This document shows, one piece after another, positions 4,599-37,000 of a DNA stretch of 44,581 bases; the first letter of the stretch is position 1, and each line of letters starts with the position of its first letter. The position numbers were made by a program, and so were the translations under genes. A model generated the notes under the pieces. That model was not told where the DNA came from. It did no database searches and saw nothing but the letters and a program-made list of their open reading frames with translations. Source of the DNA: Reclinomonas americana ATCC 50394 (lineage: Eukaryota); contig PS015238.1 in NCBI GenBank assembly GCA_048213135.1, positions 2,072 to 46,652 on the forward strand, given 5' to 3'.

Positions 4599-6065
4599 CT
4601 ACAGCACAGCGCAGCAGCCTCCACCACCCACACGACCGGGAGCGGGCCGAGGAGTTGGCATTCGCATGTCGGGATTCAAAAACGCCTGCTTAATAAGAGT
4701 GAGTCGACTAATTGCAATTGAAGCCGCAACAGACACGAGTGGCGACGCAACAAGCACGGCTGCATCGAACACGTCCTTGATGCCCACAAAGTCGAGCGCA
4801 CTGCACTCCACAAACGCCACCGCGCCGATTGCTCGCGCACACTGGTCGCCCTCGGCGGTTTGCACTTGCGGCGGCCTGGGACTGTCGGCCGTGTGTCGCA
4901 AATCGATCTTGGTGGCCACCAGCACCACCTTGGGCGTTGTCGTCCGTTGCTTCAACTCGGGCAACCACTGCGCGATGATGATGAGAAGGGGAGAGGCGAC
5001 GATGATGCGCATAGCAAAACATGCATACCACGTCGGTGATATTGGCAAACGAGGCTCGGTTGTCGACACTGTAGCACAAGACGAACACATCGGCCTCCTC
5101 GTACGCCACTCGCCGCAGTCGAGCTGGTGCGAACAGTGTGTGCGTGAGAGCGAGAGACAAGGAGCGAAATAGGTCCACAAGCGCACACACCGAAATCCTC
5201 TTGCCCTGTGTATGTATGTGTGTGCGCACGCAGCGAGTAAGCAACCACGCAAGCCACTGGTGAGCAGAGAAGACAGAGACAAGGAGGGAAAGCACACTCA
5301 CCGCCCGTGTCATGCAACACAATATCCAAACTATCGGCTGCAGATGTTGGTGCGCTGCGCTCCCACCATCAGTGAGAGAGAGAGAGAGAGTGAGAGAGAA
5401 GCGGGCAGAGAGAGACGCGAGCACACCTCGGCTGCTCGCCCTCTTTCCACGCAGTCATTGGAGGAACTTGCACCGAAGGAGTCCTGATGATAATCATCAT
5501 CGCCGTGAGTGAACATAACGACATAACAACAGCCGTGTGTTGCATGCGCGCAACGTTGCCTCCAGCTCTGTTCTGTTAAGAGGGACGTTGACCGTGTACA
5601 CTGTGTGTGTGGAAGCGCACGTGTGTGTGAGAGAAAGAGATTGCATGCGTGATGATGACAACAATCCAACCACTGCAGCACAGGCGGGAAGTCAGTCATC
5701 TCATCACATGCACACTCACTCTCTCACTCAGACACACTGTGTCGCACGCAACTCGAGCACTGTGGGAGCAAAGGCACGACCGGCGTCGGTGAACTCCTCC
5801 GTTAGGCGACCGCGCAAGTATGACAGCAAGAGACACGTTTTGCCTGCGAGAGCACACGCTGTGTGTGTGAGTTGCCTCTGTCACATGCGCTCTTGGTGAG
5901 CACAGACACAGACCAACAGAGCCATCGCCGACAACAACGCCTGTGAGGAGAGCAGTGTGAGTGAGTGGTGCCCTCTCTGTGCTCTCTCTCTCTCTCTGTC
6001 TCCCTCGTTGTCACCACGCAACAGTTGAATGAGGGCGGAGGCTGAGCAGCAGCTGTTTCTGCCAT
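4599..6065 (-). CDS. Divergent Rho/Rac-family small GTPase
   Basis: Spliced motifs CVVVGDGSVGKTCLL, PTVL, LHDTGGQEDF, ADVFVLCYSVDNRASF, VLVATKIDLR, FVECSAL, and C-terminal CAAX box CCAVL*. Confidence 0.9.
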
Positions 6066-16343: not shown

Positions 16344-18462
16344 TCACTCGCCTCCTCCTCCTCCTCCTGCTGCTGCGGGCTGCAGCTCGAGCAGCACGTC
16401 GAATGTGGCCTGGCGACACACATGGGAGTGCTGCTGACGCAAGTGTGCCTGTTGCGTGAGCTCAGCGTCGTGTTCCAGCAGTGCGTCCCAGAGCAGGTGG
16501 TGCGCGGCTGGCTGGGAGAAGTGATCGCGGAACCANNNNNNNNNNNNNNNNNNNNCAGGCGTTGCTGTGTGGTGGCCTCAGATTGCGCGGCCTCGCGGAG
16601 GGCTTCGCTGGCCACGCGCTCCAGCATGACGCGGAGAAGGTGTTGCTCCAGGGCTGTGTCGGCTGCACACTCGGCCGCCACGGCGTGTGCGGCGTCGTCG
16701 ACGTAGGCGTCGAGTACCTCTTCGGTGGTTTCGAGAGCGCGGCGGCCGCGGACGTGCTCGTCGGCGATCTCGGCCACGCATTCGGTCACGACGCGGCGAC
16801 ACTCGTTGCGTACGTGCGTGGCCACCACGTGCTCGCACGTCTCCGCCAAAATGAGTGCGCCCTGCATCGACACGTCGTCGTGTCGCAGTGTCACCGTGTG
16901 CGCGACTGCTTGCCGCTTCGCCGCCATGTGCGAGCGCACAATGTCTGACAGGCACTCGCGAACGACCGCCGCCGTCTGCTGTCGCACCACCTCTCCCACA
17001 ATGATGTCGGCCGTGGGTCGAACGAGCGCCAGCACTGCCTCGTCGTTGGCGGTGCTCGGTAGCGCCTGCGAACGTGGATCGGCCAGCACCGACGCCAGCA
17101 CGTCGGGCAGGAACGACTTGCGAATCAAGTGCGTAATCACCATGTCGGCCACCGCATTCGCATTCTTGTCGAGGTATCGCAGTTGGCGACGCTTCAGCGC
17201 CGACTTGCGTCCCAGGTGACCGCGGTAGGTCTTCTGAATGCGAGTGGCGGCTTGATTCCGCCGTGACATTTCTAACGCGAGGGAAAAACAAAAATGAGCA
17301 CGAGGAAACAGTCTGTGAAGCGCATGCACGAATGCACCATCAAACTTGAGATATCTCTTCTGGTCGGCCTTGGCGATTTGCGGCCGCAACGAGGCCGCCT
17401 CGCGCTTGGCCTCCTCCCGTTTCCTCTTGCTCGGCGACGACGAGCGATGTGTGCTGCGTCGCCGATCTCGATGCCGATCTCTGTCGCGATCCCTGTCCCT
17501 GTCCCTGTCCCTATCCCTTTCACGTTCCCGATCGCGGTGCTCCCGATGCCCACCATGATGTCGTCGGTGCGACTCCCTCTCCCGATGCTCACGATGCCGC
17601 CGGTGATTCGAGTGGCGCCGATGCCGCCGATCCTCCGCGTCCCGCTGCCGTCTCCGATGCTGCCGATCATCCGCTCTCCTGCGCCGCTGCTCTGCGTCCT
17701 CACAATCGGAGCACGAGCACGATCCATCATCACCATCAGACGACGACGAGTCATCCTCCGAGTGCGACAGTGGCGGTGGCGGCGTGGTCGACGACGACGA
17801 CGAATCCGACAACGACATCTCATCACTGCGCCGTCTCCTCTCCTTGCGCGCCATTGGCTTCATCGGCGGAAGCACCTCCCCTCGATTACGATAGCGATTA
17901 CGATGCCGTTGCGCGCGGACCTCACTGCAACGCACAGGTCGTGAGCATGTGGTGAGCATGCGCGCGAGACAAGACGAGCGGAACTTGACAGTCTGCGTCT
18001 CACTCGGCGCCGACAGCGCTCCCCGAGACAGCGCCGACAATGGAGTGGCCACCATACTCGGTGTCGCACCAGAGCTCTCTGGTCGTGATGGTCGCAGCGA
18101 CGAGGAAGCCACCTTTCCCACACACACACACAGTCAGAGCGATGGAAGAGAGTGTCTCTCGAGAAACAGACAGACCGAGGCAGCTTGATACGCAGAGACT
18201 TGATGCGCGCCTGAAGGCGTCACATAGTAGTACTGTGATGGATGAACCGCATTCGCCGCGGCCACAGTCACCGGGTATCTGATCACCTATGTGTGAGAAA
18301 GAGGAAGAGGAAAGAGGTGACTAAAGAGGCACTCAACAGTCCATAATAAGGCGGTGCACCCGCGGCCGCCATGTGGTGCTGAGGAGGAGCATATGGATGT
18401 GGTAATGGATGATGGTGGAGAAGAGGGGGAACAGCCGCAGCCGCCGCGGAGTACGGATACAT
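16344..18462 (-). CDS. IQ-motif protein with Ser/Asp-rich and RD/RH-repeat low-complexity region
   Basis: IQ motif AATRIQKTYRGHLGRK, an (RD)n tract near 17465-17530 and a helical C-terminal region. The start (MYPYSAAA) and the stop after a small gap are inferred. Confidence 0.6.
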
Positions 18463-18674: not shown

Positions 18675-21600
18675 ATGCACGGTGTGCGCAAGTCAGATGG
18701 AGCAGCGCGTCAAGCTGCGGCTCGCGCCAAGATTGAGAACTATTGCACCTTGTCAGCGCGCAGTCTTGAGCTTGTGCGTGACATGCTCTCTCTCTCTCTT
18801 TCACACTCTCACTCACTCTTGTCTCTGCGTGCGTGCGTGTGTGTTTGTGTGTGTAGCGCAAGGCCAATGCGCTGACTGCGGAGAGCCTGGAGGTGACTGC
18901 GCAAACGCTGCTCATCAATCCGGATTATTACACATTGTGGAACTTTAGGCGCGATGTGCTCACGCACATGATTGACAGCATGTTGCGTCTCTCTGCTCCT
19001 CTCTCAGTGTGTGTCTCTCTTTCGTGCGCATGGTTGCTCATATGTGGTGCATAAGGACTGATGAGAAGGAGGTTGTGGCGCTCAAGCAGCGCGAGTTGAG
19101 CTTCAACAAGGACGCGCTCAAGATCAATCCGAAGATCTACGCCATCTGGAATCACCGCAAGTGGGTGCGTTGCTCCACCCATTCCGCACAAGTCTCTCTC
19201 ACACACATGCACGAATGAGGAGACGAGACAAGGCGGTGGAGAAGAGCGAACACGTGGGATGTATTTCTGTAGCTGACACCACGTTGCGTGTGTGGATCAG
19301 GTGGTGGAGAAGTTCCCGGCGTGCTGGGAACACGAGCTGTTCTTGTGCGAGCAGCTGCTGTCGCTGGATGAGCGGAATTGTTGAGTGTTTGTGGGCATCG
19401 ACTTGTCTGGATGGAAGATGGATTCGTTGTTGACTGTGTACGTCGCGCCTGTCGCAGTCCACTGCTGGAACTATCGGCGATATGTGTTGTCGCTGGCGGG
19501 AGTGCCGGCTGAGAAGGAGATCTTGTTTTCCAGGAAGAAGATTGACAAGGTGGGTGTGGGTGTTCAATCGTGGCTCTGTCTGTCGTTCAGCAGTTGTGCG
19601 AGACGCATGTTTAGGCCTACTAGTTTACTGGTAGAACCCTACGTTCCGAACGTAGTGGACCGCGTTCGATTCGCGGGTGGGCCTTTCCTTTTTGTTGAGC
19701 GTGCTCACTTTTTTTTTCTATTAGCTGGCTCGTCTCTTTGAAGTCTTCCGGTTGTCTTTGCACGCGTTGTTTTCGTGTTGTGGTTAGAAGTGTATACGAT
19801 AGTAGTAGAGTTCTTCTCTTCTGCCTCTCCTTCTTCGTGCGCCCCGCCCTTGATCTCCAGCAGAGGCTGTCGTGTCCTGTCACCCCCCACCCCATTTGTA
19901 CTATTTTTGACTTTTCATCATATCGACTCTCGATTCATCGCCTCCGTTGCCTTGCGTTCAACCCTACAGCATTCGCATACACCCTATCTTACGTCTTCTG
20001 CATGTTGGGTTCAGAGGTCGTCGTATACTTGCACGCTGGGTTTTCTGCCTGCATTGCATTTCTGAAAGATTTTATTCCCATTCTCTCCCATTTCAAGAGT
20101 GCTCTTTGTCGCCGTACCATAGTGATAAGCAACACATGGCCTGCTAGTTTACTGGTAGAATCCTACGCTACGAACGTAGTGGACCGCGTTCGATTCGCGG
20201 GTGGGCCTTTCCTTTTTGTCGATTTGTCGTAACTTTTCGTTGCATGTCTCCTTTTTTTCCGCGCACACATTCTTTCGTTCCGCAACTTGATCGTGTTGCT
20301 GCAGGGGTGCTGAATGCTTCATATCTCTGTCTCCGCCTGCCTGCTCATCTCCGTTAACCTCTGCAGAAGTTGTCTTGTCCTGTAACCCTGCTCGTACTAT
20401 TTTTGATATCCTTCTTGTCGACACTTGATTTGTGGTTTCCTTTGCCTTTCGCTGGACCCGATGTTGACTGCGTGTTGGGTTCAGAGGTCAAATGCTCGCG
20501 TTCTGGCTATCGTGTGTTGCATTTTCTGTCATTGCATATTTCCACACTTTGCATCTCGCTGTCAAGAATGCTTTTGTTGCCTACCATATTGATGTACGGA
20601 AGCAACACATGGCCTGCTAGTTTACTGGTAGAATCCTACGTTCGGGACGTAGGGAACCGCGTTCGATTCGCGGGTGGGCCTTTCTTCTTTTTTTCTTTTG
20701 TGCCTCTATGTTCCTTTGTGTCGTTTACCATTTGCTCACCACTGATCTGTACTCGCTTGTTGCATGCTGCATGCAGCATCTCCGTTCCCACTCCACCCTT
20801 CGCTCTCTCCCTGCCGTTGCCTGCTGTCACTTCTTGTCGTATTGTCGTGTCCTTGCACCTCCCAACCCTACTGTCCTATTTTTGACCATTTTCAACACGT
20901 CTCGCACACTCGTTCCTCGCTCGCCATCTTCGTATCAACCCCTGGTGTCCGTGTTGTATAGATGCGCGTAGCAGTGTGCATTTGAATACTTGCTGAAGCG
21001 ACACAATGACACAGCGTGCATGACGTGTGCATTGCATTCGGTGCAGCACATTCATTTCCCTTTCATCCCTTGCCTCCCTTTGCCTCGCTATCTCAACCAC
21101 GCCCTCACGTCACCTGTTGCAAGGGTTAGGAGAAGCACTTGACATGGCCTACTAGTTTACTGGTAGAACCCTACGCTTCGAACGTAGTGGACCGCGTTCG
21201 ATTCGCGGGTGGGCCTTTCCTTTTTGTTGATTTGTGATCATTTTTCGTCGACAGTCTTCTTTTTGCCGCGCACCCATTCTTTTGCTCTGCAACTGGTTCG
21301 TGTTGCTGCATGAGTTCCAAATGCTTCGCCTCTCTCCCTGTATCTCTCTGTGCCTGCGTGCCCATCTCCGTTTACCTGTGCAGAGTGCTCGTATTATTTG
21401 ATATCCTTCCTTTCGACTCTTGATTCGTGGTTTTCATTGCCTGTCGTTGGGCCCTATGATTACGAGCTGTCTTGCATCTTCTGCGTGTTGGGATCAGAGG
21501 TCGCATGCTCACACTCTGGCTATCGTCTGTTGCCTTTCCTGGCTCCCTCAGGCATTTCTCTGTCAAAAATGCTCTTGCTGCCTTACCTTAGTGATTCACG

Positions 21601-24113
21601 GAAGCAACACATGGCCTGCTAGTTTACTGGTAGAATCCTACGTTAGGGACGTAGGGAACCGCGTTCGATTCGCGGGTGGGCCTTTCTTCTTTTTTCCTTT
21701 TGTGCCGATTTCTATTTTGCCAGCTCATCGCTGATCTGCACGCGCTTGGTGCTTGCTGCGTGCAGCATATCCTTTCCTACTCCACCCTGCCCTCTCCCTG
21801 CCGTTCCCACTCTACCCTGCCCTCTCCCTGCCGTTGCATGCTGTCGCTTCTTGTCGTATTGTCGTGTCCTTGCACCTCCCAACCCTACGATGTCCTATTT
21901 TTGACCATTTCAACACGTCTCGCACACTCGTTCCTCGCTCGCCATCTTCGTATCAACCCTTGGCGTCTCTGTTGTATGGACGCGCGTAGCAGCGCGCATT
22001 AGAGTACTTGCTGAAACGCAGCGATGGCGCAGCTTGCATGACGTCTGCCTTGCATCCGGTGCACGTGCAATTCCTTACCTTTCTCTCCCTTTGCCTCGCT
22101 GTCTCAACCACCCCCTCGTCACTTGTTGGAAGAGTTAGCAGAAGCACATGACATGGCCTGCTAGTTTACTGGTAGAATCCTACGTTCGGGACGTAGGGAA
22201 CCGCGTTCGATTCGCGGGCGGGCCCTGGAACGCTTCCACTTTTTGTGTTTCTTTTTTTTTGTTGACTCGTTTGTGCTGTCTCCTCCCCGCAGAACTTCTC
22301 CAACTACTCGGCGTGGCACCACCGCAGCAATCTGCTGACGCAAATCATGGCCAGCAAGTCGACAGAGGAGAAGCGCCGCATGATCGGAGACGAGTTCGAG
22401 CTGGTGTCGCAGGCATTTTTCACCGAGCCGGCCGATCAGAGTGCCTGGCTGTATCACCGCTGGCTTCTCGGCAAGGGTGCGTTCCACCGAGTGCTCTGTT
22501 GCTCTTGCCGCCCTCTGAGCAGTCTTCGCCCCGCCCTCATTTTGCAGTGCCCTCGGAGCTGTTTGTGGAGAACGTGGCGCCGTCTACACTGGCAGGTGCA
22601 CGGCAAGTGCTGCTGGCCTTCTCGACATTGGTACAGGTGCGGCTGTGCCCGGGAACTTGAACGCTCCTTTGAGATGCTGAATCCCACTGTAGGGAGTGTC
22701 GCCATCGACCGTGCTGCTGACGGCAGGCGGACACACTGTGGCGGTGACATGGACGCCCGTGTACGAGTCCACTCAGGCCGAGATCGACCGCAGTCCGTTC
22801 GCCAGTGTGTGGCTCGGAGATGTGAGCGAAGAGGTGCCGTTGGGCGAGAGCGGTGAACTGGCAGTGCATGGAGACGGTATTGTTTCTGTGGATGGTGTGG
22901 CACTGTCGATGGGCGGCGTGTGCCGGTGGACTGCGGAGGGCATGGTGCTCTTGCCGCTTCTCAGCAAGGACGTTGTGGATCGAGCCGAGGAGGATCAAGG
23001 TGCTGCTAATGTCTCTTGATGATGGTGGTGGTGGTGGAGCTTCACAATTGTGTCTCATCGCGAATGACATGTGTGTATGTGCAGAGTTGCGCGCCTTGTC
23101 GGTGCTGGAAAAGGATATCGAGCTGTGTCGCGAGCTGCTGAGCGAGGAGGATGGGCTGAAATGTTGAGTGAGATGCCATGGTCTTTGTCCCTCATCGCAT
23201 TCTTTGCGTGGCTACCCTTCTCAACGCCACTGTCCACGCAACGCAGGGGCATCCATCACGCTGGCATTCTCGCTGCGCGAGCGTGACTTGCAGATTGTTC
23301 GTCGTGAGCGACGCCTGAACCCTGCTCTTTCCGGTTCCGTACGCCCTCCCCCCTCAGCTTCGGTATCGGTGTCGGTTCTCGTTGACAAGTGTGCGTGCGT
23401 GCTACAGAGAGCTCGGAGGACTCGCTTGCTTCCTCGCTGGAGGCCATCGAGCTCCTCGGTGGCCTCGCAGCCTCCGACAGCATGCACACACGTTACTATG
23501 ACGATATGCGGAGCGACTACTCGCTGGAGCTGCGCACGCGCCATCCGTTCCCCAAGGACGCAGCTCCTCGCTCACATGTGCACGCCGACGACTGGACGCT
23601 GGATCTGTGTGGCCAGCATTTCACGCGTGTGCGCCACTTGAATAGGTGTGGCGTCGTGCGCCTGCAGTCTTGCATATCGCGCACGCGCAAGTGCTCACCA
23701 TTTCTACAGGATGGTGCACATTCGCCACCTGGACTTGTCTCGCAATGCGCTCGTCTCGCTGGAAGGCATTCAGTTTTTGGCGCTGCTGGAGACGCTTGTT
23801 GCCGACGACAACCAGTTGACGAATCTCGATGTGAGACTGTCGGCGCTGAAGCACTTGCGAGTGCTCTCCGTGGCCAACAATGGTGTGTGTGTGCGCGCCC
23901 ACTTGTCCTTGTCGTGTCTGTGTGTGTGCGCTTGCTTGCACTCAACCGTGGTGTGTGTGCGCGCGCCACGTAGCCATTGCGTTGTTGCCAACCAACGCCG
24001 TGAGCGATGTGGTCACGGAGGTGCGCGGTGGCAGCAATCCGGCCACCACTGCTGCTCTGCTGCGGACTGCTTTTCCGGCAGCCACGACGGTGGTGTGGGA
24101 GGTGACGGAATGA
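18675..24113 (+). CDS. RABGGTA: Rab geranylgeranyltransferase (GGTase II) alpha subunit, long form with insert domain and LRRs
   Basis: N-terminus MHGVRK. Prenyltransferase alpha repeats NPDYYTLWNFRR, NPKIYAIWNHRKW, DERNFHCWNYRR, NFSNYSAWHHR and FTEPADQSAWLYHRWLL. C-terminal LRRs (IRHLDLSRNALVSLEGIQFLALLETLVADDNQL). Confidence 0.95.
19614..19684 (+). tRNA. tRNA with Arg anticodon CCG (array copy 1)
   Basis: Cloverleaf: acceptor GGCCTAC/GTGGGCC, D-arm GTTT-ACTGGTA-GAAC, anticodon arm CTACG-TTCCGAA-CGTAG (CCG at 19646-19648), variable loop TGGA, T-arm CCGCG-TTCGATT-CGCGG, N73=T, T-run downstream. Confidence 0.88.
20138..20208 (+). tRNA. tRNA with Arg anticodon ACG (array copy 2)
   Basis: Same body. 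Loop CTACGAA (ACG at 20170-20172), variable loop TGGA, N73=T, followed by TTCCTTTTT. Confidence 0.88.
20611..20681 (+). tRNA. tRNA with Pro anticodon CGG (array copy 3)
   Basis: Same body. Loop TTCGGGA (CGG at 20643-20645), variable loop GGAA, N73=T, T-run downstream. Confidence 0.88.
21146..21216 (+). tRNA. tRNA with Arg anticodon TCG (array copy 4)
   Basis: Same body. Loop CTTCGAA (TCG at 21178-21180), variable loop TGGA, N73=T, followed by TTCCTTTTT. Confidence 0.88.
21613..21683 (+). tRNA. tRNA with Pro anticodon AGG (array copy 5)
   Basis: Same body. Loop TTAGGGA (AGG at 21645-21647), variable loop GGAA, N73=T, T-run downstream. Confidence 0.88.
22155..22225 (+). tRNA. tRNA with Pro anticodon CGG (array copy 6)
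   Basis: Same body. Loop TTCGGGA (CGG at 22187-22189), acceptor GGCCTGC/GCGGGCC, N73=C (the usual eukaryotic tRNA-Pro discriminator), T-run about 15 nt downstream. Confidence 0.9.
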
Positions 24114-24227: not shown

Positions 24228-27200
24228 TTAGCGCACAATGGAGTTGGGAATCGCCGGCTGTGTGCAGATACCGGCCGATGTCATCGCCGGGTTGCCGCGG
24301 AAGTTGCAGATGCCACTTTCGTCGGTCCGCAGGTCCTGCGCGAAGAGTAAGCCGTCAGGAATAACAACGAAGAGGGAGAGAGAGAAAAGACGCAACTGCC
24401 AGAACCACTGGAATCTTCTTGGAGCTGAGGACCTTGTCGGGCGCCGCCTCAAAGCCGGCAAACGACACGCGCTCGCCGATGCGCGATCCCTCTGGCGGAT
24501 TGATAAAGTCGACCTTGCTGTCGTCGGCACTGGCAGCGCACAGGACCATGGCCTCGCTCTTCACGTCGCGCAGCTTGGAGGGCTTCATGTTGCACACGAC
24601 AAGAATGACGCGGTCCTGCGATATGCCGGGCGACAGGTGAGGGAAACGGCACGCTGGGACACGCATCAGCCATGCACAACCAACCTGCATCCTGTCAATC
24701 GGGATGTGTTGCACGAGTCCACTGACCACCTGGCGCGGCTCCGCCTCACCCACGTCGATCCTTTCCACATACAGCCTGCCGACAACAAGAAAGATGAACA
24801 ATGACCGCGATATCGATCGTGCTTATGACAGAAACACAGAGACAACGTACCGATCGGCCGTCGGGTGACGCTCCACATGCACAATGCGACCGACGCGAAT
24901 GTCAAACGCCGAAATGTCTTCCAGATCCACCTTGGGTGGTGGAGGAGGAGCCTTCGTCTTCTCCTTCTTCTCCTTCTTCTCTGTCCGCTTGCCCGCGGCG
25001 GCCGGGGGTGCAGATTCCGCTGCCGCAGCCGCAGATTCAGAGGCAACAGATTCCGCGGCGGCTTCCGACTTCTGTGATGCCGGTGGTGGTGGTGGTGCGC
25101 CACTGCCAGACGCTCCCCCCGAGGCGTCGGCGAATTCCAGCGGCGCCTCCCCAACGCTGCGACGGTACTCGTTGTGCGCCTCCAGCTGCTTCTCCCACTG
25201 CTTCTGCAACCTCTTCTGCGCGGCCTTGGCCACCGGCTTGCCGTCCTTGTCGACGGTTGGCAGACCCCTCTCGTCCCAGGCCGAGTACTCCGCGTCCCTG
25301 AACATGTCCAGCGGCGACTTTTTCGCCGCCTCCAATTTCAACGCTGCGAACGGGCGAACGTCGGCGACAGAATGCGCCAGAGAAATCCGGCCAACAACAA
25401 CAACAACGAACCCTGCGCAGCCTCACGCTCCAACCGGCGCTTCTCCTTCTCCGCCTCACGTGCAGCCTCCGCAGCGCGCTTCTCCTCCAACTCCTGCAGC
25501 AAAACCTCCGGCTTCTCAAACTTCCATGCACTCTTGCCGTCGGGGCGGTCCTCCAGACGCACACCAAGAGGAATCAAGGTGGTGTCACGGATATCGTCAG
25601 TCATGCGCAAAATTACTTGGTAATCTGCGACGAGCGAGCAAGTGCGTGAGCGAGTGAGAGACACAAGAACAGCCATAAGTTCTCCCCCCACGCTCGTCAA
25701 TCCCAACACACCTGCTTTTTGACGAGCCGCCGTGCGCACTTGCTCGCGGAAATCGGCGAGCACGTTGAGGTACGGTGCGATGCGGTCCTCCGCCTGTCAG
25801 CAAGAGACGTTGGTCAGCGCATAGCCATCGAATAAATAAACAAGGAGGCGTCCNNNNNNNNNNNNNNNNNNNNNNNNNNNNNNNNNNNNNNNNNNNNNNN
25901 NNNNNNNNNNNNNNNNNNNNNNNNNNNNNNNNNNNNNNNNNNNNNNNNNNNNNNNNNNNNNNNNNNNNNNNNNNNNNNNNNNNNNNNNNNNNNNNNNNNN
26001 NNNNNNNNNNNNNNNNNNNNNNNNNNNNNNNNNNNNNNNNNNNNNNNNNNNNNNNNNNNNNNNNNNNNNNNNNNNNNNNNNNNNNNNNNNNNNNNNNNNN
26101 NNNNNNNNNNNNNNNNNNNNNNNNNNNNNNNNNNNNNNNNNNNNNNNNNNNNNNNNNNNNNNNNNNNNNNNNNNNNNNNNNNNNNNNNNNNNNNNNNNNN
26201 NNNNNNNNNNNNNNNNNNNNNNNNNNNNNNNNNNNNNNNNNNNNNNNNNNNNNNNNNNNNNNNNNNNNNNNNNNNNNNNNNNNNNNNNNNNNNNNNNNNN
26301 NNNNNNNNNNNNNNNNNNNNNNNNNNNNNNNNNNNNNNNNNNNNNNNNNNNNNNNNNNNNNNNNNNNNNNNNNNNNNNNNNNNNNNNNNNNNNNNNNNNN
26401 NNNNNNNNNNNNNNNNNNNNNNNNNNNNNNNNNNNNNNNNNNNNNNNNNNNNNNNNNNNNNNNNNNNNNNNNNNNNNNNNNNNNNNNNNNNNNNNNNNNN
26501 NNNNNNNNNNNNNNNNNNNNNNNNNNNNNNNNNNNNNNNNNNNNNNNNNNNNNNNNNNNNNNNNNNNNNNNNNNNNNNNNNNNNNNNNNNNNNNNNNNNN
26601 NNNNNNNNNNNNNNNNNNNNNNNNNNNNNNNNNNNNNNNNNNNNNNNNNNNNNNNNNNNNNNNNNNNNNNNNNNNNNNNNNNNNNNNNNNNNNNNNNNNN
26701 NNNNNNNNNNNNNNNNNNNNNNNNNNNNNNNNNNNNNNNNNNNNNNNNNNNNNNNNNNNNNNNNNNNNNNNNNNNNNNNNNNNNNNNNNNNNNNNNNNNN
26801 NNNNNNNNNNNNNNNNNNNNNNNNNNNNNNNNNNNNNNNNNNNNNNNTGCAGCGCCGTGCTGGGCTCCAACATGATGGATGTGCACTCGGGTGGACAAGA
26901 CCTGAAGTTCCCCCACCACGACAACGAGCTGGCACAGTCCGAGGCGTGCTTCTGCCACCACCAGTGGGTGAACTACTTTTTGCACTGCGGACATTTGGGC
27001 ATTGGTGGCCAGAAGATGTCCAAGTCGAAGAAGAATTTCACCACCATCAAGGTCTGTGTCAGCAAACACATGATTCCACCACTCGTGCGTGCGACTCACC
27101 TCCCCGCGTCCATCATGCCTGCAGGAGGCACTGCAAGTGTACACTGGTCGCGACATCCGCATGCTGTGCTTGCTGCACAAGTACAACGCACCGCTGGAGT

Positions 27201-30117
27201 ACAGTGAGAGCGCCATGGAGGAGGCTGTGACTTTCCAGCGCCAGTTCCGCGAGTTTTTCCAGAACATGAAGGTGGAGCTGCGCACGGCGTCGCCACACGC
27301 AGCCACCCGATGGGATGCACCGGAGAAGCAGCTGAAGGATGCGCTGTTGGCAGCGCAGCAGGCGGTGCGCAACGCGCTGGTGGACGACATGGACACCCCG
27401 ACTGCCATTCGTCAGCTGCAGGAGCTCATCTCGGCCACCAATCGCTACCTCATGGACGTGCGCGCCATCCCCGGCCGCGAGCCGCGCGCCATGTCGCTGC
27501 GCGACGTGGCCGCTTACATGACCGACATTTTCACGGTGTTTGGCCTGAACGAGGTCGGCGCCATTGGCTTTGCGTCGGCCGAGGAGGGTGGCGCGGTACG
27601 TCNNNNNNNNNNNNNNNNNNNNNNNNNNNNNNNNNNNNNNNNNNNNNNNNNNNNNNNNNNNNNNNNNNNNNNNNNNNNNNNNNNNNNNNNNNNNNNNNNN
27701 NNNNNNNNNNNNNNNNNNNNNNNNNNNNNNNNNNNNNNNNNNNNNNNNNNNNNNNNNNNNNNNNNNNNNNNNNNNNNNNNNNNNNNNNNNNNNNNNNNNN
27801 NNNNNNNNNNNNNNNNNNNNNNNNNNNNNNNNNNNNNNNNNNNNNNNNNNNNNNNNNNNNNNNNNNNNNNNNNNNNNNNNNNNNNNNNNNNNNNNNNNNN
27901 NNNNNNNNNNNNNNNNNNNNNNNNNNNNNNNNNNNNNNNNNNNNNNNNNNNNNNNNNNNNNNNNNNNNNNNNNNNNNNNNNNNNNNNNNNNNNNNNNNNN
28001 NNNNNNNNNNNNNNNNNNNNNNNNNNNNNNNNNNNNNNNNNNNNNNNNNNNNNNNNNNNNNNNNNNNNNNNNNNNNNNNNNNNNNNNNNNNNNNNNNNNN
28101 NNNNNNNNNNNNNNNNNNNNNNNNNNNNNNNNNNNNNNNNNNNNNNNNNNNNNNNNNNNNNNNNNNNNNNNNNNNNNNNNNNNNNNNNNNNNNNNNNNNN
28201 NNNNNNNNNNNNNNNNNNNNNNNNNNNNNNNNNNNNNNNNNNNNNNNNNNNNNNNNNNNNNNNNNNNNNNNNNNNNNNNNNNNNNNNNNNNNNNNNNNNN
28301 NNNNNNNNNNNNNNNNNNNNNNNNNNNNNNNNNNNNNNNNNNNNNNNNNNNNNNNNNNNNNNNNNNNNNNNNNNNNNNNNNNNNNNNNNNNNNNNNNNNN
28401 NNNNNNNNNNNNNNNNNNNNNNNNNNNNNNNNNNNNNNNNNNNNNNNNNNNNNNNNNNNNNNNNNNNNNNNNNNNNNNNNNNNNNNNNNNNNNNNNNNNN
28501 NNNNNNNNNNNNNNNNNNNNNNNNNNNNNNNNNNNNNNNNNNNTGTGAGAGAGAGGGAGAGCATCGATCAGTGGCCGAACAGGGGGCTTTGTTTTCCCGT
28601 CGAGCACGACGCAACGTGGCCATGGCCGAGCACTCAATGTGCCAACCGGGGCGACCGCGTCCCCACGGCGAGTCCCACGCTGGCTCGCCAATCTTTGAGG
28701 CCTTCCACAACGCAAAATCGGCCGCCGTCTTCTTCTCCGACACACCACCGCACAGCGAACCTGCCAGCGAAGAGGACGACAAAATGTCAGGAGAGAGACC
28801 ACACACCAGCGATTGACAGACTGGACGGACTGACCCTCGCCCTCAGCCATCAGCTCCAGATCATTGTGGCGCTCTGGTGCGAGCTTGGGATGCTCGTGGC
28901 CGGCGGCGAGGTAGGCAGTGGTGTCAAAGTACACCGAACCAGTGGCGCTGGCATACGCAAAGCCATTGTCCACAATCTTCTGAATAAAGGCCACCACCTC
29001 GGGCACATACTCGGTGACGCGCGGCATGGCCTGCGCTGGTCGAACCTGGAGAAAGCAGCGCGGATTGTGAGACCGAGTGCGAGGGGTGGTGACTGGCAAC
29101 TGGTGGGAACAATAAGCAACTCCCAGCGACGCCATGTCCTCGAGGAAATCACGCTCGTAGTGACGAGCGTGGCCCTCAAAGTCGGGTTCACGTGCCGCCG
29201 CCTCAGCACTAATCAGATTGGCACTCAGCGCCGCCTGTTTGATGGCTTGCGCCGCGGCATAGGTGCGCGCCACCTTGCGCGATTCCTCACCATCGGCCAG
29301 CAGCTCACGCGCCTCTGTCAGCGCCTGCTCCAGCGCCGCACTGCACATACGCACACATCAGCGAAAGAAAGAGCGACTAGGATGGGGGGAGGGAGGGAAA
29401 GTGAGGCAGAGACGCAACGATGCAGAAGCGCGTGGAGACAACTCATTCACCAAGTCCTGCAGATGCTTCTGCGAGGAGGCAATGATGATCTTGTCGTCCA
29501 CGTCGGTGATGTTCATGACAAACAGCGTCGGCAGGTGGAAGTAGTCCTCCAGCACACGACGGATAATGTCAAGCGACACGTAGTTGCTGATCCCAGAGAG
29601 CGAGAGATGAGTTCAAGTGTCTCGAGTGTGCAAGCTCTGATTCGCACGCGCGCGCGCGCGACCTCACCGTGCATGACCCAAGTGCGACACATTGTACACG
29701 GTCGGCCCGCACGAGTACCATCGCAGAGGCCCATTGCGCGGCTTGCGAAGAGGCACCTGTCGAGAGCGCAAATGTGAGCAACTGTGAGCGGAGATGGGAG
29801 GAGGTGGGAGGCAGTCACAGTCACTTGGAAATCACAAACAAAGCACACAGTGTGCCTCTCCTACGCACACACACACACACGCGCGCGCACACAGACAATG
29901 GGGCATGCGTGCGCGCGTGCTGGCGACAACTCCCACTCTCTCTGTCACACATGACTGACATGTCCCTCACTGCCACACACACTCTCTCTCTCTCCCAGCT
30001 GAGCACCTTGCTGCGCGTCAACGAGTTGTACACAAAGACTCCAGTCTCCTCGTACTCGCCACTGGCCACACTCGGCTCAATCCACTTTGGCTGATGACTT
30101 CCGCTCGCAGCCGCCAT
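24228..30117 (-). CDS. CARS1: Cytosolic-type cysteinyl-tRNA synthetase with C-terminal EMAPII/Trbp111-like tRNA-binding domain
   Basis: [94 protein letters not shown], the eukaryotic C-terminal extension ([17 protein letters not shown]), then an OB fold ([38 protein letters not shown]). Confidence 0.95.
26853..27595 (+). CDS. CARS1: Internal exons of the CysRS gene on a gap-flanked contig scaffolded in the wrong orientation
   Basis: [52 protein letters not shown] and anticodon-binding helices. Splice phases match the flanking minus-strand exons at both ends. Confidence 0.9.
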
Positions 30118-30128
30118 TTGAACAAGGT

Positions 30129-30140
30129 TTTGGCGCGAAA
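30129..30140. promoter_or_regulatory. E2F-type element in the CysRS/SET divergent intergenic region
   Basis: TTTGGCGCGAAA (reverse complement TTTCGCGCCAAA) matches the canonical E2F site. Function is not demonstrated. Confidence 0.4.
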
Positions 30141-30163
30141 TTATGTTTGTCCCAAATCTTCCG

Positions 30164-31030
30164 ATGTCGAGGCCGCTCACCGCACTCACTCTCCGCCTCA
30201 CTGCTCTCCGCGGCCGCGGTCTGTTCGCTCCCCGCGCGATCACCAAAGGCGAGTGCATTGCCACCGAGCACGCGCTCGTCTGTGCACCGCGTGTCGCTGC
30301 TGCATGCACACACTGTCTGTCGAGGGCGGCTTGTCGATGCAGTGCGGAGACGGGAACGCGTGGGGAGGTGGAGGAGCTGTGTCGACAGTGGGGCGGCATG
30401 CGGTACCCGGTGATGACGAAGCGACTGATGGTGCGCAGTGCACGCGAGGTGGGCTTCTTTGAGGAGGTGCTGCAGACGTTGTGTTTCGCGCGCATGTCGC
30501 CGCCGTATCCGGCCGAGTGGGTGACGTTGTATGAGGCTGCCATGCGTGATTGTGCGAGTTTGGCGATTGATGAGCGGTGGCGCGGGGTGTGGACGGTGGA
30601 GTCGTTTGTGCGGGTGCTGAGTGCGGTGCACATTAATGCGTTTGCGGCGGGCGATGAGTTGCCCGGATCGGTGTTGTTTCACGAGTTGTCCATGCTGAAT
30701 CATGCGTGTCGGCCGAATGCCGAACTGCGCTTCTCTCTTGTCAGCGGTGCGCGTCTCTCTCCCCTCGATCTGCTCATGTGCAGCAGCCTCATCTTCCTCG
30801 TTGCATGTGCAGGCGACAATGTTCCGCATCCACTCATCGGCTCACTGATCGCACTGCGCGACATTGCTGTCGACGAGGAGGTTACAGTGTCGTACACGGA
30901 CGTCAACGCGACGCAAAAGGAGCGACGTGAGGCTCTGCAGTTTGCCTATGGATTCGACTGCGTGGCGACGTGCACGTCCTCTTGTCGAGACGAGAATGTG
31001 GGTACGAAGAGGAGGCCGCATACGAGATAG
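30164..31030 (+). CDS. SET-domain (SMYD-like) lysine methyltransferase
   Basis: RGRGLFAPRAITKGECIATE, a Cys-rich remnant CTHC..C, INAF, LSMLNHACRPNA, ALRDIAVDEEVTVSY, and post-SET YGFDC..TC...C. There is one probable in-frame intron and an alternative ATG at 30143. Confidence 0.9.
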   Translation: MSRPLTALTLRLTALRGRGLFAPRAITKGECIATEHALVCAPRVAAACTHCLSRAACRCSAETGTRGEVEELCRQWGGMRYPVMTKRLMVRSAREVGFFEEVLQTLCFARMSPPYPAEWVTLYEAAMRDCASLAIDERWRGVWTVESFVRVLSAVHINAFAAGDELPGSVLFHELSMLNHACRPNAELRFSLVSGARLSPLDLLMCSSLIFLVACAGDNVPHPLIGSLIALRDIAVDEEVTVSYTDVNATQKERREALQFAYGFDCVATCTSSCRDENVGTKRRPHTR

Positions 31031-31089
31031 CAATGTAGTAGCACAGACGCCTCGTGTACTGTCTGTCGCCACAGCTCTACAAATGATGC

Positions 31090-34000
31090 TCACAGCTCGT
31101 CGTGCTTCCTGCGCTTCTTTGTCGCTTTCTTCTGTGGCTTCTTCTTCGTGCTGCTGCTGCTGCTGTTGCTGCTGGCGGCGGTGGCCTCTTCCTCCAAAGG
31201 CGGCGGCGGCGGCTTCGTGGTGGCTGCCCCGGCCTCGTCCTTCTTGTTGGAGCTCTTCTTGGGCGTGTCGACCGCCGCTGTCGCCGGCGCTGATTTTTGA
31301 CTGACTGGTGCTGCTGCAGCGGCTGTGGTTTCGGTGGTGCCGCGCGCCTTCTCCGCCTCCTCGAATTCGCGCACCACACGATCGTACTCGCTCCATTCGG
31401 GTGCCACGCGACGCGCCACGTCCAACTTGGCCTCCTTGGTCAGCGGGTTGTTGCACTGCGAAACACAACTCGTCAGCTCCTCAACTGCCGGCATCTTCCT
31501 ATCACCGCATAGCCACACACATACACACCAGATCAATTGTCTTGGCGCGTTCCTTGGTCTCATCCGAGCACCACGTCTCACACCACAGCCACTCTTGCGG
31601 CAGAGAGAAAATGCGCACTCCGTGCTGCGCGTAGTTGGGCAGATCCTGATCCAAGTTGGAGAGGCTGTTCGGATCCTGACTGAGGCTGTCGTAGATGGCG
31701 CGATAGTGATCGCCGGCTGCCAGCTTGCGGAAGCGGTACAGGTCAATGACAAAGAGCGCACTAATGTGGTACGGCTTGCCGCGCAGATGCTTCTCCCACT
31801 GAGACAACAGCGATGAGTCACACGCACGCACACACACACGCAAGGAGATGCTCGCCACAACGCAACGTAGCCAGCCTTCCAGAAACGGAAGCCGTCCATT
31901 TCCTTGCGCGAGTCGCAGAATGGCGTGTAGCCGATGGGTGCTCCGTTGAGGTCCATGTTGTACAACTCTGACATGTCGGCGCGCACAATCTGGTGGCACA
32001 GGGGAAAAGTCAGTCGCACGCACCACACTGAACAATGCTGGCAATGCACGACAAGCCTGATCGGCGTCCACAAAGATGATCTTGCGCAGGCTCAGCGGGA
32101 AAATGACGTCCACGAACAGCACCTTGTACCTGCACGGCATGTGTGTGAGTGCCAGAGAAAGAGCCGATTAATGTCGGTGCGCAAACGCACGCCCAGATAA
32201 TGCGCTGCTTCTCGGTCTGCTTATTAAGCCAGGTCGGCCACTTGTAGGCCACCAGCTCGTACTCGAATCCGATTTGCTCCGCATATCTTGGCAGTGAGCG
32301 CTGTGTGGACACGTGTCAGAACCATGCGGCGTCACTCACTTGCCCCCCAAGAGCGTGTGGCGTACCTTGAACTGCGGGCTCAAGAACTGCTTGAGGAACC
32401 AGAACTTGAGCGGTGATTTGGTGTGCCGACGGACAGCCATGATCATGATCTTCAGTAGCCGCTCATACAAATGACCACTGGCCACACTGAAAATGTGCAC
32501 CGTGTCGCCTGCCGAGGCACCGCCGCCACCGCCGAACATACTGTGTGTGAGGTGAGTACAAAAAAAGATAGCAGTTGGCAGATGGGATGCGCGACGACAC
32601 GCACTTGCTCAAACTGTTCCACAACCCGCTGCCACTGTCCTCGCCCTCGCTGCCGTCCGCCTGCACATCCAGCACACTTTCCGCCTCTTTGCCCGCACGC
32701 TTCTGCACCCACAGGAACAATTCATCTCCCTCAAAGTTGTCCATGAGGAACGACTGGTTGTCGGCGTGACCGCCGGTGCGATTGTTGGTGCTGAGGAAGT
32801 GCAGGTTGTTGATCTCGTAGATCTCCGATGCACGGCCTTGAAATTCAAAGAGAAGAGTGTGTGCGTTCAGTACGTCAGATATATCTGTCGCCAGACAAAG
32901 AATACCACACCTTCGGCCAGTCCGAGTGTGAACAGGCCTGGTCGACCCTTCAGCTGGAAGTAGCCATAATTCGCCATCACAATGGTGTCATCCACCAACG
33001 ACCTGTCAGCACCACCACGGAGCTCCAGCTCGAGACCACGCGGTGGAGCATTCGTCTTGTCGTAGCATTGACCTAAAAAGCACAAAGGAGTAAGAGGGAA
33101 ACTGGAACTGCGATGGAAGAGGGCAAGTACCACGCACCCGTGAGCACCATGTCCTCCAGCACAAACTCGGCACTAACGACAGATCTACTCGTGCGATACG
33201 CAAAGTGAGTGAGCGCAAAGCCGCTGCAATAACAGTGGAGCGCATCGCCCACTCACCGTGGCTGCGCAGTCAGGCGGATGTTGTCGAGGTCTTCTTCCGC
33301 AAGCACCGATTCCACCAGCCACGATTCCGGCGGCAACACATTCATGGTCAATACGTAGTGCGTGGGCAGGCCGGCAAACTCCACACGCGGAGCTGACAAG
33401 ACAATTCGGCATGCCACGGATGAGCCAGCGCACGTGCGCAATACAATGTGCAACGAAAGATAAAACGCACTCGAGTTGGAGAACGGCTCGGCCGTGATGA
33501 AGCGGTAGAAGCTGCGCAATCGCGGCGGCAGCGAGAACGACTTTTGCGAAGACAGATACACAGAAACCGCTGCGCCGGCATCGTACAGAGTCTGCGTGCG
33601 ATCCACGACTGAGTGTCTCATTGCAAGATTTCATGTTGAAATGAACAGTTAGCAACCTGCAAAAAGTTGGCCGCCTTGGCTGCAAACTGGGCCAGTGGGT
33701 CCATGACCACCTCAATGCGCACAAATGGCAGTTGGCCATTCGAGTCCAGAGAAATCGAACTGTGCGGATCCGACGAAGAGTGAGGGCGACAGCAAGATAT
33801 GCACAGTGGACGAATGGATGGCAGGCACGCAACGCTCGCTTGTCCAACCCAGGTGGCAGCTCTTCATGCGAGATCTGCTGCTGGTACTGACGGTGCACCA
33901 AGAACGACGACACGCCGAGCACAATCGACGATTGTTCCCTGCACATATCACTCTTCAGACGCGGAACTCTCATCCCCCCTCTTAATTCTCGTGCACGCAA

Positions 34001-37000
34001 CCGTGAGCTTCGCGAGTTCCACGAATCGTCCAAACGGATCATGTCATACACAGGTCGCAGACGCTCATCGTGCTCCTTGCGGTGCAGCAGGTGCCAGTCG
34101 TCGACGGCGAACAGCCCATACGAGGGGAATCGCACCATCTACCACAACAAGCGAGAGTGAGATCAAGCACCTCACAGCACGGCGCATAGCTGACGAAACT
34201 CGTCCATTGACAATGATCGCCGCTTGGCTGTTGGTCTGGTCACGGAAGAAGGCAGACACGGCACTGAACTCCTTCTGGAAGGAGTGGTACTCGGATTCGA
34301 GAATCGCGCGTTCGCCAGCTGCGCACATATCAGCAACAGTCATGAAAAAGGACACTGCATGAAACGCGCACCGTCCGTCAGCACACGATTCACACGGTCA
34401 GCCATGCACTGGTCTGGCACCGGATCGTCCTTGGTCACCGACAGCGCGAAATCGCTTCCGAGCACATCCAGTCCCTCGGCACCAACACGAACATGCTTCT
34501 CCGCGTGCGCCAACTGCACTCGCAGTTTGCGCAACAGATCGAGTCGCTCGTGGCGCGACAGATCGTCCTGTCCGCATCGTGCATCGGAACCCACGAGAAT
34601 GGTGTGCGTCAGCATGGCAATCGCCGGGTTCTGCAGGCACAAGTACATGGTCGGTTCTCCCGACGTCGTGCGCTGAGAAGACTTCTACACACACCTGCGG
34701 AGGCAGGTACACAAAGGAGAGGTTCACGATCGAGTGCGGAGCCCGGGTCTGCATGCACCACCAACAAAAATGTGCGTCAAACAACAATGCGCGCTGAGTG
34801 CAGAACATCACCGACAGCCAGCACTCACAAGGAACTCCAGGCCATCGATGACCATGGTGAGACCGTCGACAGTCGACGGGTCGAAGAGCACCACGGTGGT
34901 CACCGGCACGCGCGACTTTGACTGTGTGCGGGACACAAAGTAGCTCGACGCCTGCGGCAAGCGCGACAGTTCGCCCATCACTGGCGACGATGGCACCGCA
35001 ATCGGCAGCGACACAAACTCGAGGCCAGCGGTCACTGCCAGACTCAGCTTCTGCACTCGTGCACACATTACAGCGCTCGTCAGCGCAAGGGAGAACAAGG
35101 TGCTCACACCTCTATCATACCACCCACCTTGACTGCACTGGACGTGAGGTAAGAGTACACGTTGGTGGAATCATTGATGGCTCCCTCCAGCAGCTTGCCA
35201 ATCAGCAGTCGGTTCTCGCTGGTGACACCAGCAGCAAACAGGTACGCCTCAGGCTGCATGTGAATGTGGGTGTGTGCGTGTCAGACAACACTCAATGTCA
35301 CCCTGATGAAGACGCAGAAAGGAAGATTGCAAACCGACGGATAGTTGATGTGAATTCCGTTCAGCAGCATCACGCACGAGGCGGAGGCGAGGCCGCGGTT
35401 CACTGCAAACTCGTTCGTACGCACAATCGAGCGGACGTAGGAGCCCGACGACAGGATCTCCATCGCGTCAGACCTGGAAGGTCATTAACTCAGACAAGCA
35501 ATGTAAAGAAGTGAACAGGCATCGCTGTCACCACACGCAACTTGGTCGCTTCTCCATGTTGCGGGTGCGCAGCATTCGCCGTCAGCACGGCGTCGTACGC
35601 GTCAAGCACCATGTCCATGGAGAGCGGCAGCTCGACGTTGGCGTTAGCCTGCTCTTGCCACACCACAAAAGCACGATAGTAGAAGAGCAAGCTGGCCGGC
35701 GCACCAAAGTGCTTTCGCACGTGACGGAAGAGTGCATTCAGTGCATACGATACCGACGCTTTGGTGTCGAACGTAAAGGCTAACAATGCACACGCGCACA
35801 CACACAATGAGAGTCACACAAGTAAGAAACAGAGTGCTATCTGGCAAACAGACCTTGCGTGGACACGCTGTCATCATCACCGCCTTCGTCATCGCTACCA
35901 CGAGTGGCCACGCTGCACAAGAACAGTGAGTCACTTTTTGTCGGCGATAGTGGCGTCGATATGGATCGCAGACCTGATGCGTTGCTGCGTCTTGAAAGTG
36001 ACGTACTCGTCGATATCGCCCATGGACACGAGCATTATGCGGACAGGTGCACGCTGGCTGAGCATCATGTACAACGATGCCGCCGTCCGCAAGTCACTCA
36101 CACTGCACGAGTCGCGCCAAGTAAGACGACACTGGAAGAGAAGAAGAAGAAGAAGAAGGGAAATGAGTGCAGCACCGTCCCGGATCCACGGCAGTCACCA
36201 CTGTGTACAGATTACGCGCAATCGGTGTCACGCGGCCTGGATACTGCGGCTTCAGCATCTGGTCGTAGATTGAAGAAGCGCGTCAGTGTTGGAGGACGAT
36301 TCAGAACAACAGCACCACGCTCACCTCCTTCAGTGTCTTCGGCCAGCGAGCGTAAGTCTGATCGGTCTCCAGGTCGTTGATCGTCACAATCACACCCATC
36401 GGTGCATCAGTCACCACATCAACACGAGGACTCTGTTCTTGCACATGAGCCACACGTCGGCACGACGATACGTACTGAGAGGTGCACACACCGGCGAGGA
36501 GAATTTGATGGCCAGCAGCTTGCCGACCACTGCATGCTGCAAGCCGAGTGAAGCCAGCGCCGACCCCGCACCGTGCTCCTCCTTGACAATGCGGAGCGCG
36601 CTGCCGAGCGCACACAATCAACCACAGCGACCAGAACAGAAAGACAAGTGTGATAGGAAGAGGGTACCTGAAAATGCTGGCCACCTCCATGCGAATCGGG
36701 CGCCCGTTGATGTAGAAGCGAATCTCTGTCGAACGACCAAGGTGAGCAAAGGAAAAAGAACAGCAAGTGAATTCACCCACCTTGCGAGGGATCAGCCGGG
36801 GCATTCTGACGCAGAGCATTGGCGACCTTCGACTTGGCGATCTTCGGCATGCGCTTCAGCTGCGGTGCCAGCGCCGGCCAATTCTCCGTCACGTGTCGCA
36901 GCGTGGCGAGCGGGCTCGGGCTGTTGAGCACCACGGCACTGCCACGCATACCCACCGTGGCAACATCGACCTCCTCCCACTTGTGCAACTCGGCCTCCGC

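Follow-up and report, generated by a model that had tools for sequence, protein, structure and literature searches.

The stretch of Reclinomonas americana ATCC 50394 DNA studied here (the window: 44,581 nucleotides (nt), assembly GCA_048213135.1, contig PS015238.1, positions 2,072 to 46,652 of the forward strand) holds six transfer RNA (tRNA) genes in one intron of a protein-coding gene. The six genes share nearly one body and carry anticodons for both arginine (Arg) and proline (Pro). Comparison of duplicated bodies with their spacers and the placement of the changes support selection, and the six appear to be kept as working genes. We consider it probable that they are stand-alone RNA polymerase III (Pol III) genes, tandemly duplicated inside the intron, encoding working cytosolic tRNAs that are charged through an anticodon-led identity.

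The genes, each 71 nt long and on the + strand within 19614-22225, were delineated by ARAGORN, which placed the start of copy 1 at 19613 or 19614. They follow each other at a spacing of 467-542 nt with the anticodons CCG, ACG, CGG, UCG, AGG and CGG. All six scored above the gathering threshold (29 bits) of the Rfam family RF00005, copies 3 and 5 being scored only in separate single-copy scans. The copies are listed below with their variable states and RF00005 scores.

19614-19684, + strand: copy 1, anticodon CCG (Arg); A6-U67, G10-C25, U32, A37, variable loop UGGA, U73; 52.9 bits
20138-20208, + strand: copy 2, anticodon ACG (Arg, presumably with inosine at position 34); G6-U67, G10-U25, C32, A37, UGGA, U73; 47.1 bits
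20611-20681, + strand: copy 3, anticodon CGG (Pro); G6-U67, G10-U25, U32, G37, GGAA, U73; 44.3 bits
21146-21216, + strand: copy 4, anticodon UCG (Arg); A6-U67, G10-C25, C32, A37, UGGA, U73; 54.9 bits
21613-21683, + strand: copy 5, anticodon AGG (Pro, presumably with inosine at position 34); differs from copy 3 at position 34 only; 43.1 bits
22155-22225, + strand: copy 6, anticodon CGG (Pro); G6-C67, C73; 45.6 bits

Ten of the 71 sites vary in the six-copy alignment (6, 25, 32, 34, 35, 37, 44, 46, 67 and 73). The cloverleaf of 7, 4, 5 and 5 pairs is complete in every copy, with 21 pairs each and 126 of 126 stem cells paired. Pair 6-67 is A-U in two copies, G-U in three and G-C in one, pair 10-25 is G-C in two and G-U in four, and no stem pair is altered on both sides. 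Twelve invariant positions of the tRNA core are unchanged throughout. The initial annotation of this array had stated that all stem differences keep pairing and that the anticodon class goes with the loop bases. Both statements are exact, as A37 with variable loop UGGA is found in all three Arg copies and G37 with GGAA in all three Pro copies, and the variable sites 32 and 73, which it omitted, can be added to them.

As expected, each copy looks like a separate Pol III gene, having its own T run and no encoded CCA, and the internal A and B boxes lie within the tRNA body. A run of at least five T (T5 to T7) begins 5-15 nt 3' of the body in six of six copies, where the background for such a run per 22-nt stretch is 0.7% outside the array and 9% inside it.

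19689-19693, + strand: T5 run, Pol III terminator-like, after copy 1
20213-20217, + strand: T run after copy 2
20688-20694, + strand: T run after copy 3
21221-21225, + strand: T run after copy 4
21690-21695, + strand: T run after copy 5
22240-22244, + strand: T run after copy 6

The trailer of copy 6 (22226-22244) has about eight additional bases and a small hairpin preceding the T run. Copy 6 alone has C at the discriminator position 73, the other five having U, and this base at the trailer edge may stem from the trailer change and not from selection for a Pro discriminator.

Duplication history and constraint on the bodies

The matches among the spacers reveal the duplication of an Arg-Pro dimer, and the spacers supply the divergence with which the bodies can be compared.

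19685-20137, + strand: spacer 1-2, 31-33% different from spacers 2-3 and 4-5
20209-20610, + strand: spacer 2-3, duplicate of spacer 4-5, 18.5% different with 8 gaps
20682-21145, + strand: spacer 3-4, duplicate of spacer 5-6, 13.2% different with 8 gaps
21217-21612, + strand: spacer 4-5, duplicate of spacer 2-3
21684-22154, + strand: spacer 5-6, duplicate of spacer 3-4

Across the clearly homologous spacers 13-33% of aligned sites differ and 6-13 gaps occur, which bears out the earlier description of spacers rich in substitutions and indels. An origin of the spacers as decayed flanking exons or introns was ruled out (all 10 comparisons gave z values of 1.9 or less).

Against this divergence the duplicated bodies hardly differ. 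Copies 3 and 5 show no difference at 68 non-anticodon positions, while their spacer pairs differ by 13.2% downstream (P = 7e-5) and 18.5% upstream (P = 9e-7), and copies 2 and 4 show 2 differences over 68 positions as compared to 18.5% in the spacer pair (P = 1e-4). When the duplicate pairs were pooled, 2 differences in 136 positions were observed against 21.6 expected (P about 2e-8). Nine body-versus-spacer tests were made, three of which were unused or indicative only: copy 2 with copy 3 downstream, where the spacers are not significantly alignable, copy 1 with copy 3, where about 95 nt can be aligned, and copy 2 with copy 3 upstream, which crosses the classes. The comparison of body with spacer that the initial annotation had proposed thus gave lower divergence in the bodies of the duplicate pairs, copies 4 and 6 being an exception that is weighed below. 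Conversion tracts reaching into the flanks, by which it had said that its inference could be refuted, were looked for as well. Flank identity is down to about background 10-20 nt from the tRNA body, and therefore long conversion tracts are absent.

The placement of the changes within the bodies gives a second line of evidence. The shortest trees, three equally good ones out of 105, need 13 body changes, none of which disrupts a pair or an invariant base, and random placement matched this in 2e-5 of 400,000 trials. As gene conversion does not filter changes by structure, it does not explain this result. Position 34 takes 3 of the 13 changes (P = 7e-4, or 0.05 when the site is not specified beforehand) and the anticodon as a whole takes 4 (P = 0.002), and G34 is absent from all six copies. 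The pairing-preserving stem argument is weak by itself: the stem variants comprise three one-sided changes, none compensatory (P = 0.007-0.065 depending on transition bias), and a pair-shuffle control equalled the observed pairing in 344 of 500 shuffles. The earlier claim that the copies are not neutral repeats therefore stands through the body-versus-spacer tests, the placement of changes and the excess at position 34, and not through the stems on which it had partly leaned. That the copies are functional, as it also held, is probable.

Arginine and proline classes

Positions 35, 37, 44 and 46 change jointly on a single branch in all three best trees. The class differences are hence one event, and the three copies of a class do not count as independent observations. 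Since these four positions fall on one branch, shared ancestry statistically explains the whole class co-variation. The co-variation had been offered as a sign of tuning, with shared ancestry as a partial cause; ancestry holds as the cause, "part" was too weak a word for it, and as proof of tuning a single event adds little alone. The G37 of the Pro copies would be retained, not newly tuned, if the body is Pro-derived. In a dereplicated and mostly bacterial and viral comparison set from the fetched loci, Arg tRNAs with NCG anticodons had A37 in 20/24 and C32 in 20/24, and Pro tRNAs with NGG anticodons had G37 in 29/35 and U32 in 27/35. This lends modest support to the loop bases of the two classes and does not address 44 and 46. 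The 32-38 pair may have a role in tuning.

The initial annotation regarded G37 as required in tRNA-Pro for reading-frame maintenance. 1-Methylguanosine at 37 (m1G37) is established for bacterial tRNA-Pro (PMC6335274), and its main effect there may be on charging rather than on the reading frame (PMC8643618). The E. coli Arg CCG isoacceptor also carries m1G37 (PMC6335274), and A37 is therefore not a known or general need of Arg tRNAs.

In yeast, C35 together with G/U36 confers Arg identity, while position 20 contributes marginally and 73 hardly at all, and A38 is listed for eukaryotic Arg tRNAs; human Pro identity lies mainly in the anticodon branch, and G35 is a main determinant for prolyl-tRNA synthetase (ProRS) (PMC9976931). 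The Arg copies 1, 2 and 4 have C35, G36 and A38, the last being present in all six copies, and the Pro copies 3, 5 and 6 have G35, G36 and G1-C72. One body can serve Arg and Pro because eukaryote-type ProRS and yeast-type arginyl-tRNA synthetase (ArgRS) mainly read positions 35 and 36, and a single scaffold would carry both identities if the ArgRS of this organism is of the yeast type.

The codons of nearby genes keep their standard meaning. At conserved columns of the exons for a cysteinyl-tRNA synthetase (CysRS) and a UDP-glucose:glycoprotein glucosyltransferase (UGGT) in the window, Arg is the residue opposite 16 of 18 CGN codons and Pro that opposite 25 of 26 CCN codons; no reassignment of CCN, or of CGN apart from CGA, is seen there. 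CCG is the commonest Pro codon (36/79) and is served by two array copies. By their anticodons the six genes are predicted to be able to read all four CGN codons together with CCU, CCC and CCG.

From these observations the following course of events may be proposed. A compact 71-nt body, probably that of a tRNA-Pro, would have been copied in tandem inside the intron, and in one copy G35 would have changed to C together with 37, 44 and 46, giving an Arg reader. Later wobble-base changes would have produced the three standard eukaryotic CGN readers (ACG, CCG and UCG) and two Pro readers (AGG and CGG). We infer that Pol III transcribes the copies, that after processing they receive the amino acid dictated by bases 35 and 36 and take part in translation, and that purifying selection preserves the body and the distinct anticodons despite some exchange between copies.

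Origin of the shared body and rival explanations

Judged from its bases, the shared body conforms to neither the canonical Arg type nor the canonical Pro type of eukaryotes. It has C15 with A48, U20, mostly U73, a 4-nt variable loop and C52-G62. The last departs from the metazoan purine:pyrimidine preference, and the metazoan Pro stem motifs and the variable loop of more than 4 nt are not found in the array copies, the reference table being metazoan only (PMC9023262). Among the matches listed, 64 of 69 distinct C15 tRNAs with this D-arm have A48, and C15/A48 is thus a legitimate, natural combination. It recurs in bacterial tRNA-Gly, Nanoarchaeota and phage tRNAs (L088-L317) as an alternative to the usual purine-pyrimidine 15:48.

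The closest outside sequence among 748 distinct tRNAs is the tRNA-Pro(UGG) of locus L173, which has the same 71-nt frame and shares 56/71 bases (next score 49). Among the matches listed, it is the only Pro anticodon in 69 hits of an anticodon-blind pattern, and it shares 31/45 unconstrained sites against a mean of 18.5 (standard deviation 3.6) for the rest of the 69. Alone of 166 distinct 71-nt tRNAs it has all six scored features (GGCC acceptor end, U5-G68, C15/A48, G51-C63, C52-G62 and U73), no other having more than three. Five of its stem pairs differ on both sides from all six copies and still pair. Unlike the array it is a single copy with anticodon UGG and U38 in an AT-rich, viral-type context. 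Locus L173 is a cluster of 19 tRNA genes on a metagenome contig, beside thymidylate synthase and DUF5754, and includes an Ile-AAU gene. We take DUF5754 to be a giant-virus family, and because of this and of the Ile-AAU gene we read the locus as giant-virus-type. With a second anticodon-blind pattern, 3 of 4 hits were Pro, and two of these were near-identical. The best blastn match lay within a tRNA-Pro(CGG), but the query contained that anticodon.

The exact family motif gave no hits in metagenome contigs, nor did a compact-Pro pattern in viral contigs. Acceptor and T-arm patterns found 49 and 12 loci in viral contigs, with Pro or Arg in none of the 46 and 2 matching tRNA calls, and blastn searches with copies 3 and 1 in phages and with copy 4 in plasmids yielded short partial matches only. 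Besides, a compact tRNA-Pro(UGG), its D-loop 7 nt and its variable loop 4 nt long, occurs in many viral contigs (L011-L087), with G37 in 76/77 hits.

The L173 tRNA has the Pro-class state at 35, 37 and 46, and therefore a Pro-to-Arg direction is indicated. Rooting by one distant outgroup takes 28 steps, against 29 for a root inside the Arg copies. A Pro-type body is thus suggested to have given rise to the three Arg CGN readers, with a weak root. That the tRNAs work and the body came instead from an Arg-, His- or Gln-type tRNA, with G37 gained by the Pro copies, is a doubtful alternative, which concerns the direction only and overlaps our preferred explanation. It would cost a single extra step, and by eye count copy 3 matches 15/21 metazoan stem-motif letters for His and 13/21 each for Gln and Pro, the 4-nt variable loop being common to His and Gln (PMC9023262); the inner anticodon-stem pairs are not Pro-specific either (4/35 Pro, 5/30 Val and 2/18 His). 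Set against this are the Pro identity of the best match of the 748 tRNAs, its standing as the only Pro among the 69 listed hits with the Pro-class state at three sites, and the Pro hits of the second pattern. As the nearest sequence is viral-type, a giant-virus-type tRNA-Pro could also have entered the protist intron, been domesticated and amplified, and been re-coded to the whole CGN Arg set and most of the Pro set. We hold this to be unlikely, and the reverse direction, from a host lineage with such tRNAs to the virus, agrees with the data just as well.

Several observations weigh against six working genes charged by their anticodons. Copies 4 and 6, which share a common upstream spacer type (the spacer ahead of copy 6 being homologous to that ahead of Arg copy 4), differ at 8/68 positions, not below the spacer prediction (P = 0.45). 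In a four-gamete test sites 6 and 25 conflict with site 32, and therefore conversion or repeat mutation took place; part of the body likeness may be homogenisation between copies. Copy 1 (CCG) carries U32, departing from the Arg C32 mode, and the set in which this mode was determined is largely not eukaryotic. All copies have U20, so the Arg copies lack A20, on which Arg identity mainly depends in E. coli, plants and mammals (PMC9976931), and the eukaryotic Pro discriminator C73 is present in one of the three Pro copies (copy 6), the other two having U73. Metazoan Arg and Pro tRNAs do not typically have a 4-nt variable loop or C52-G62 (PMC9023262), no CGA codon is present at the conserved columns, and minimum-energy folds of the unmodified copy RNAs fall short of the full cloverleaf.

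Some exchange between copies has occurred, yet it cannot account for the structural filtering or the wobble-base variety. For this reason a neutral or decaying repeat, with bodies alike through gene conversion and an accidental variety of anticodons, is improbable: conversion is blind to structure whereas none of the 13 changes is disruptive (P = 2e-5), it would erase and not enrich differences at position 34, the likeness stops near the tRNA edges and the T run is kept in six copies. This explanation does draw on the four-gamete conflict, on copy 6 as a Pro-type body in an Arg-type slot and on the weakness of stem preservation alone, and five distinct anticodons out of eight would avoid both G34 forms by chance with a probability of about 0.11. 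Selection for a non-decoding job, such as tRNA fragments, a chromatin boundary or control of host-gene splicing or level, would suit the unusual sense-strand cluster, an intron that exceeds each of the four preceding ones more than 20-fold in length and the atypical body, but it fails to predict wobble-focused variation inside two codon boxes and is very improbable. A more serious but still rather unlikely possibility is that the Pro copies work while the Arg-anticodon copies are charged poorly or wrongly, for example with Pro, being silent passengers or a source of low-level CGN mistranslation. It gains from the missing A20 and from the tRNA-Pro as nearest outside relative of the body, from the absence of NCG among 77 viral tRNAs that combine this D-arm frame with an NSG anticodon and, among the matches listed, among the 69 C15 tRNAs, and from the nematode nev-tRNAs, which are mature and conserved without detectable mistranslation (PMC4300185). 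G35, a main ProRS determinant, is, however, missing from the Arg copies, CGN stands at Arg-conserved columns in 16/18 cases, and the three copies have exactly the three standard CGN anticodons under a constraint equal to that of the Pro copies.

Charging led by the anticodon thus remains our preferred explanation, and the array is most likely a compact variant of the known anticodon shifts (PMC3923123). Near-identical bodies, anticodons for different amino acids and duplicate spacers, as expected of an alloacceptor shift, are all found. The Arg-versus-Pro copy pairs are 86-93% identical, whereas none of 3,088 alloacceptor pairs taken from within single fetched loci is above 79%. Near the top of those pairs stand His/Cys, Trp/Cys, Arg/Trp and Cys/Tyr tRNAs of L353, a giant-virus metagenome-assembled genome, and of L173, which are 73-77% alike and suggest older anticodon shifts in giant-virus-type tRNA clusters. 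In the shifts described by Rogers and Griffiths-Jones in 2014 a duplicated tRNA gene likewise switches its anticodon, position 35 being commonest for identity switches and 34 for isoacceptor switches, with 37 and 73 co-varying. The 75 shifts reported from eukaryotic nuclear genomes are isolated events dispersed over sets of orthologues, and of 30 alloacceptor shifts 25 involve a unique pair (PMC3923123). Unlike them, the present case is one local array on a non-canonical body, in which five anticodons, including all three standard CGN readers, radiated after a single identity switch.

Mitochondrial tRNA remolding also joins duplication with anticodon change and leaves a tRNA nearer to another family than to its own (PMC4783518), whereas this array is nuclear and intronic with both identities side by side. 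The nev-tRNAs are similarly a conserved family with body and anticodon from different tRNA classes, but their variable arm is long and they receive Leu whatever their anticodon (PMC4300185); the array has neither a long arm nor G3-U70 and thus no known anticodon-independent identity element. Entamoeba too has tandem tRNA genes in a protist nuclear genome, there as large arrays whose repeated units contain short tandem repeats between the genes (PMC2652664), here as a single six-gene intronic cluster with diverged spacers. A literature search covering mainly freely accessible journals found no report of an intronic single-body Arg/Pro tRNA array.

If the copies are charged according to their anticodons, the array would be a natural swap experiment in which an Arg and a Pro family, served by class I and class II synthetases, are 86-93% shared. 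Only 35, 37, 44 and 46 separate the classes, so that six natural alleles could be used to test how small a change suffices to switch identity and what G37 is worth relative to A37. A eukaryote would then have built a full isoacceptor set through local anticodon radiation, possibly on a virus-related body; were the virus-derived reading true, two amino-acid families would use one imported scaffold and be distinguished by four bases.

Host gene and neighbouring genes

The six exons given below join at GT..AG sites into one open frame of 229 amino acids, and Pfam PPTA (PF01239) matches exons both upstream and downstream of the array. Leucine-rich repeat (LRR) families match further 3', and the gene extends to an LRR region around 23700-24100. 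From PPTA and LRR we read it as a Rab geranylgeranyltransferase of the alpha type.

18675-22476, + strand: host gene, first six exons (18675-18773, 18857-18981, 19056-19164, 19301-19379, 19458-19549 and 22293-22476)
19550-22292, + strand: array-bearing intron, 2,743 nt, GT..AG, containing all six copies

The four preceding host introns measure 74-136 nt, and those starting at 18982 and 19380 have GTTG donors.

On the - strand at 24240-29750 a cytosolic-type CysRS seems to be in frame with an EMAPII-like tRNA-binding domain (PF01588). The junction of the two is an Ala/Pro/Lys-rich linker, and an open exon at 24853-25344 covers a CysRS-aligned region together with the apparent start of the EMAPII-like domain. 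Among the matches listed, PF01588 was present in 0/120 CysRS homologues. The middle piece of CysRS (26848-27603) is in the reverse orientation and has an N gap on either side, for which an inversion during scaffolding is the most likely cause. A link between the tRNA body and this gene, considered on account of U73, G2-C71 and C3-G70, which are Cys determinants (PMC9976931), was dropped as Cys identity also requires a GCA anticodon.

The UGGT-like gene (31000-38000, - strand) is an ordinary-looking neighbour; its relatives reach 79%, and those of CysRS 83% at most, so that the protein matches of this intron-rich eukaryote include no close relative. A SET-domain protein gene (30122-31027, + strand), a SAC3-like gene (16556-18133, - strand) and a Ras-family GTPase gene (4600-5450, - strand) are likewise ordinary-looking.

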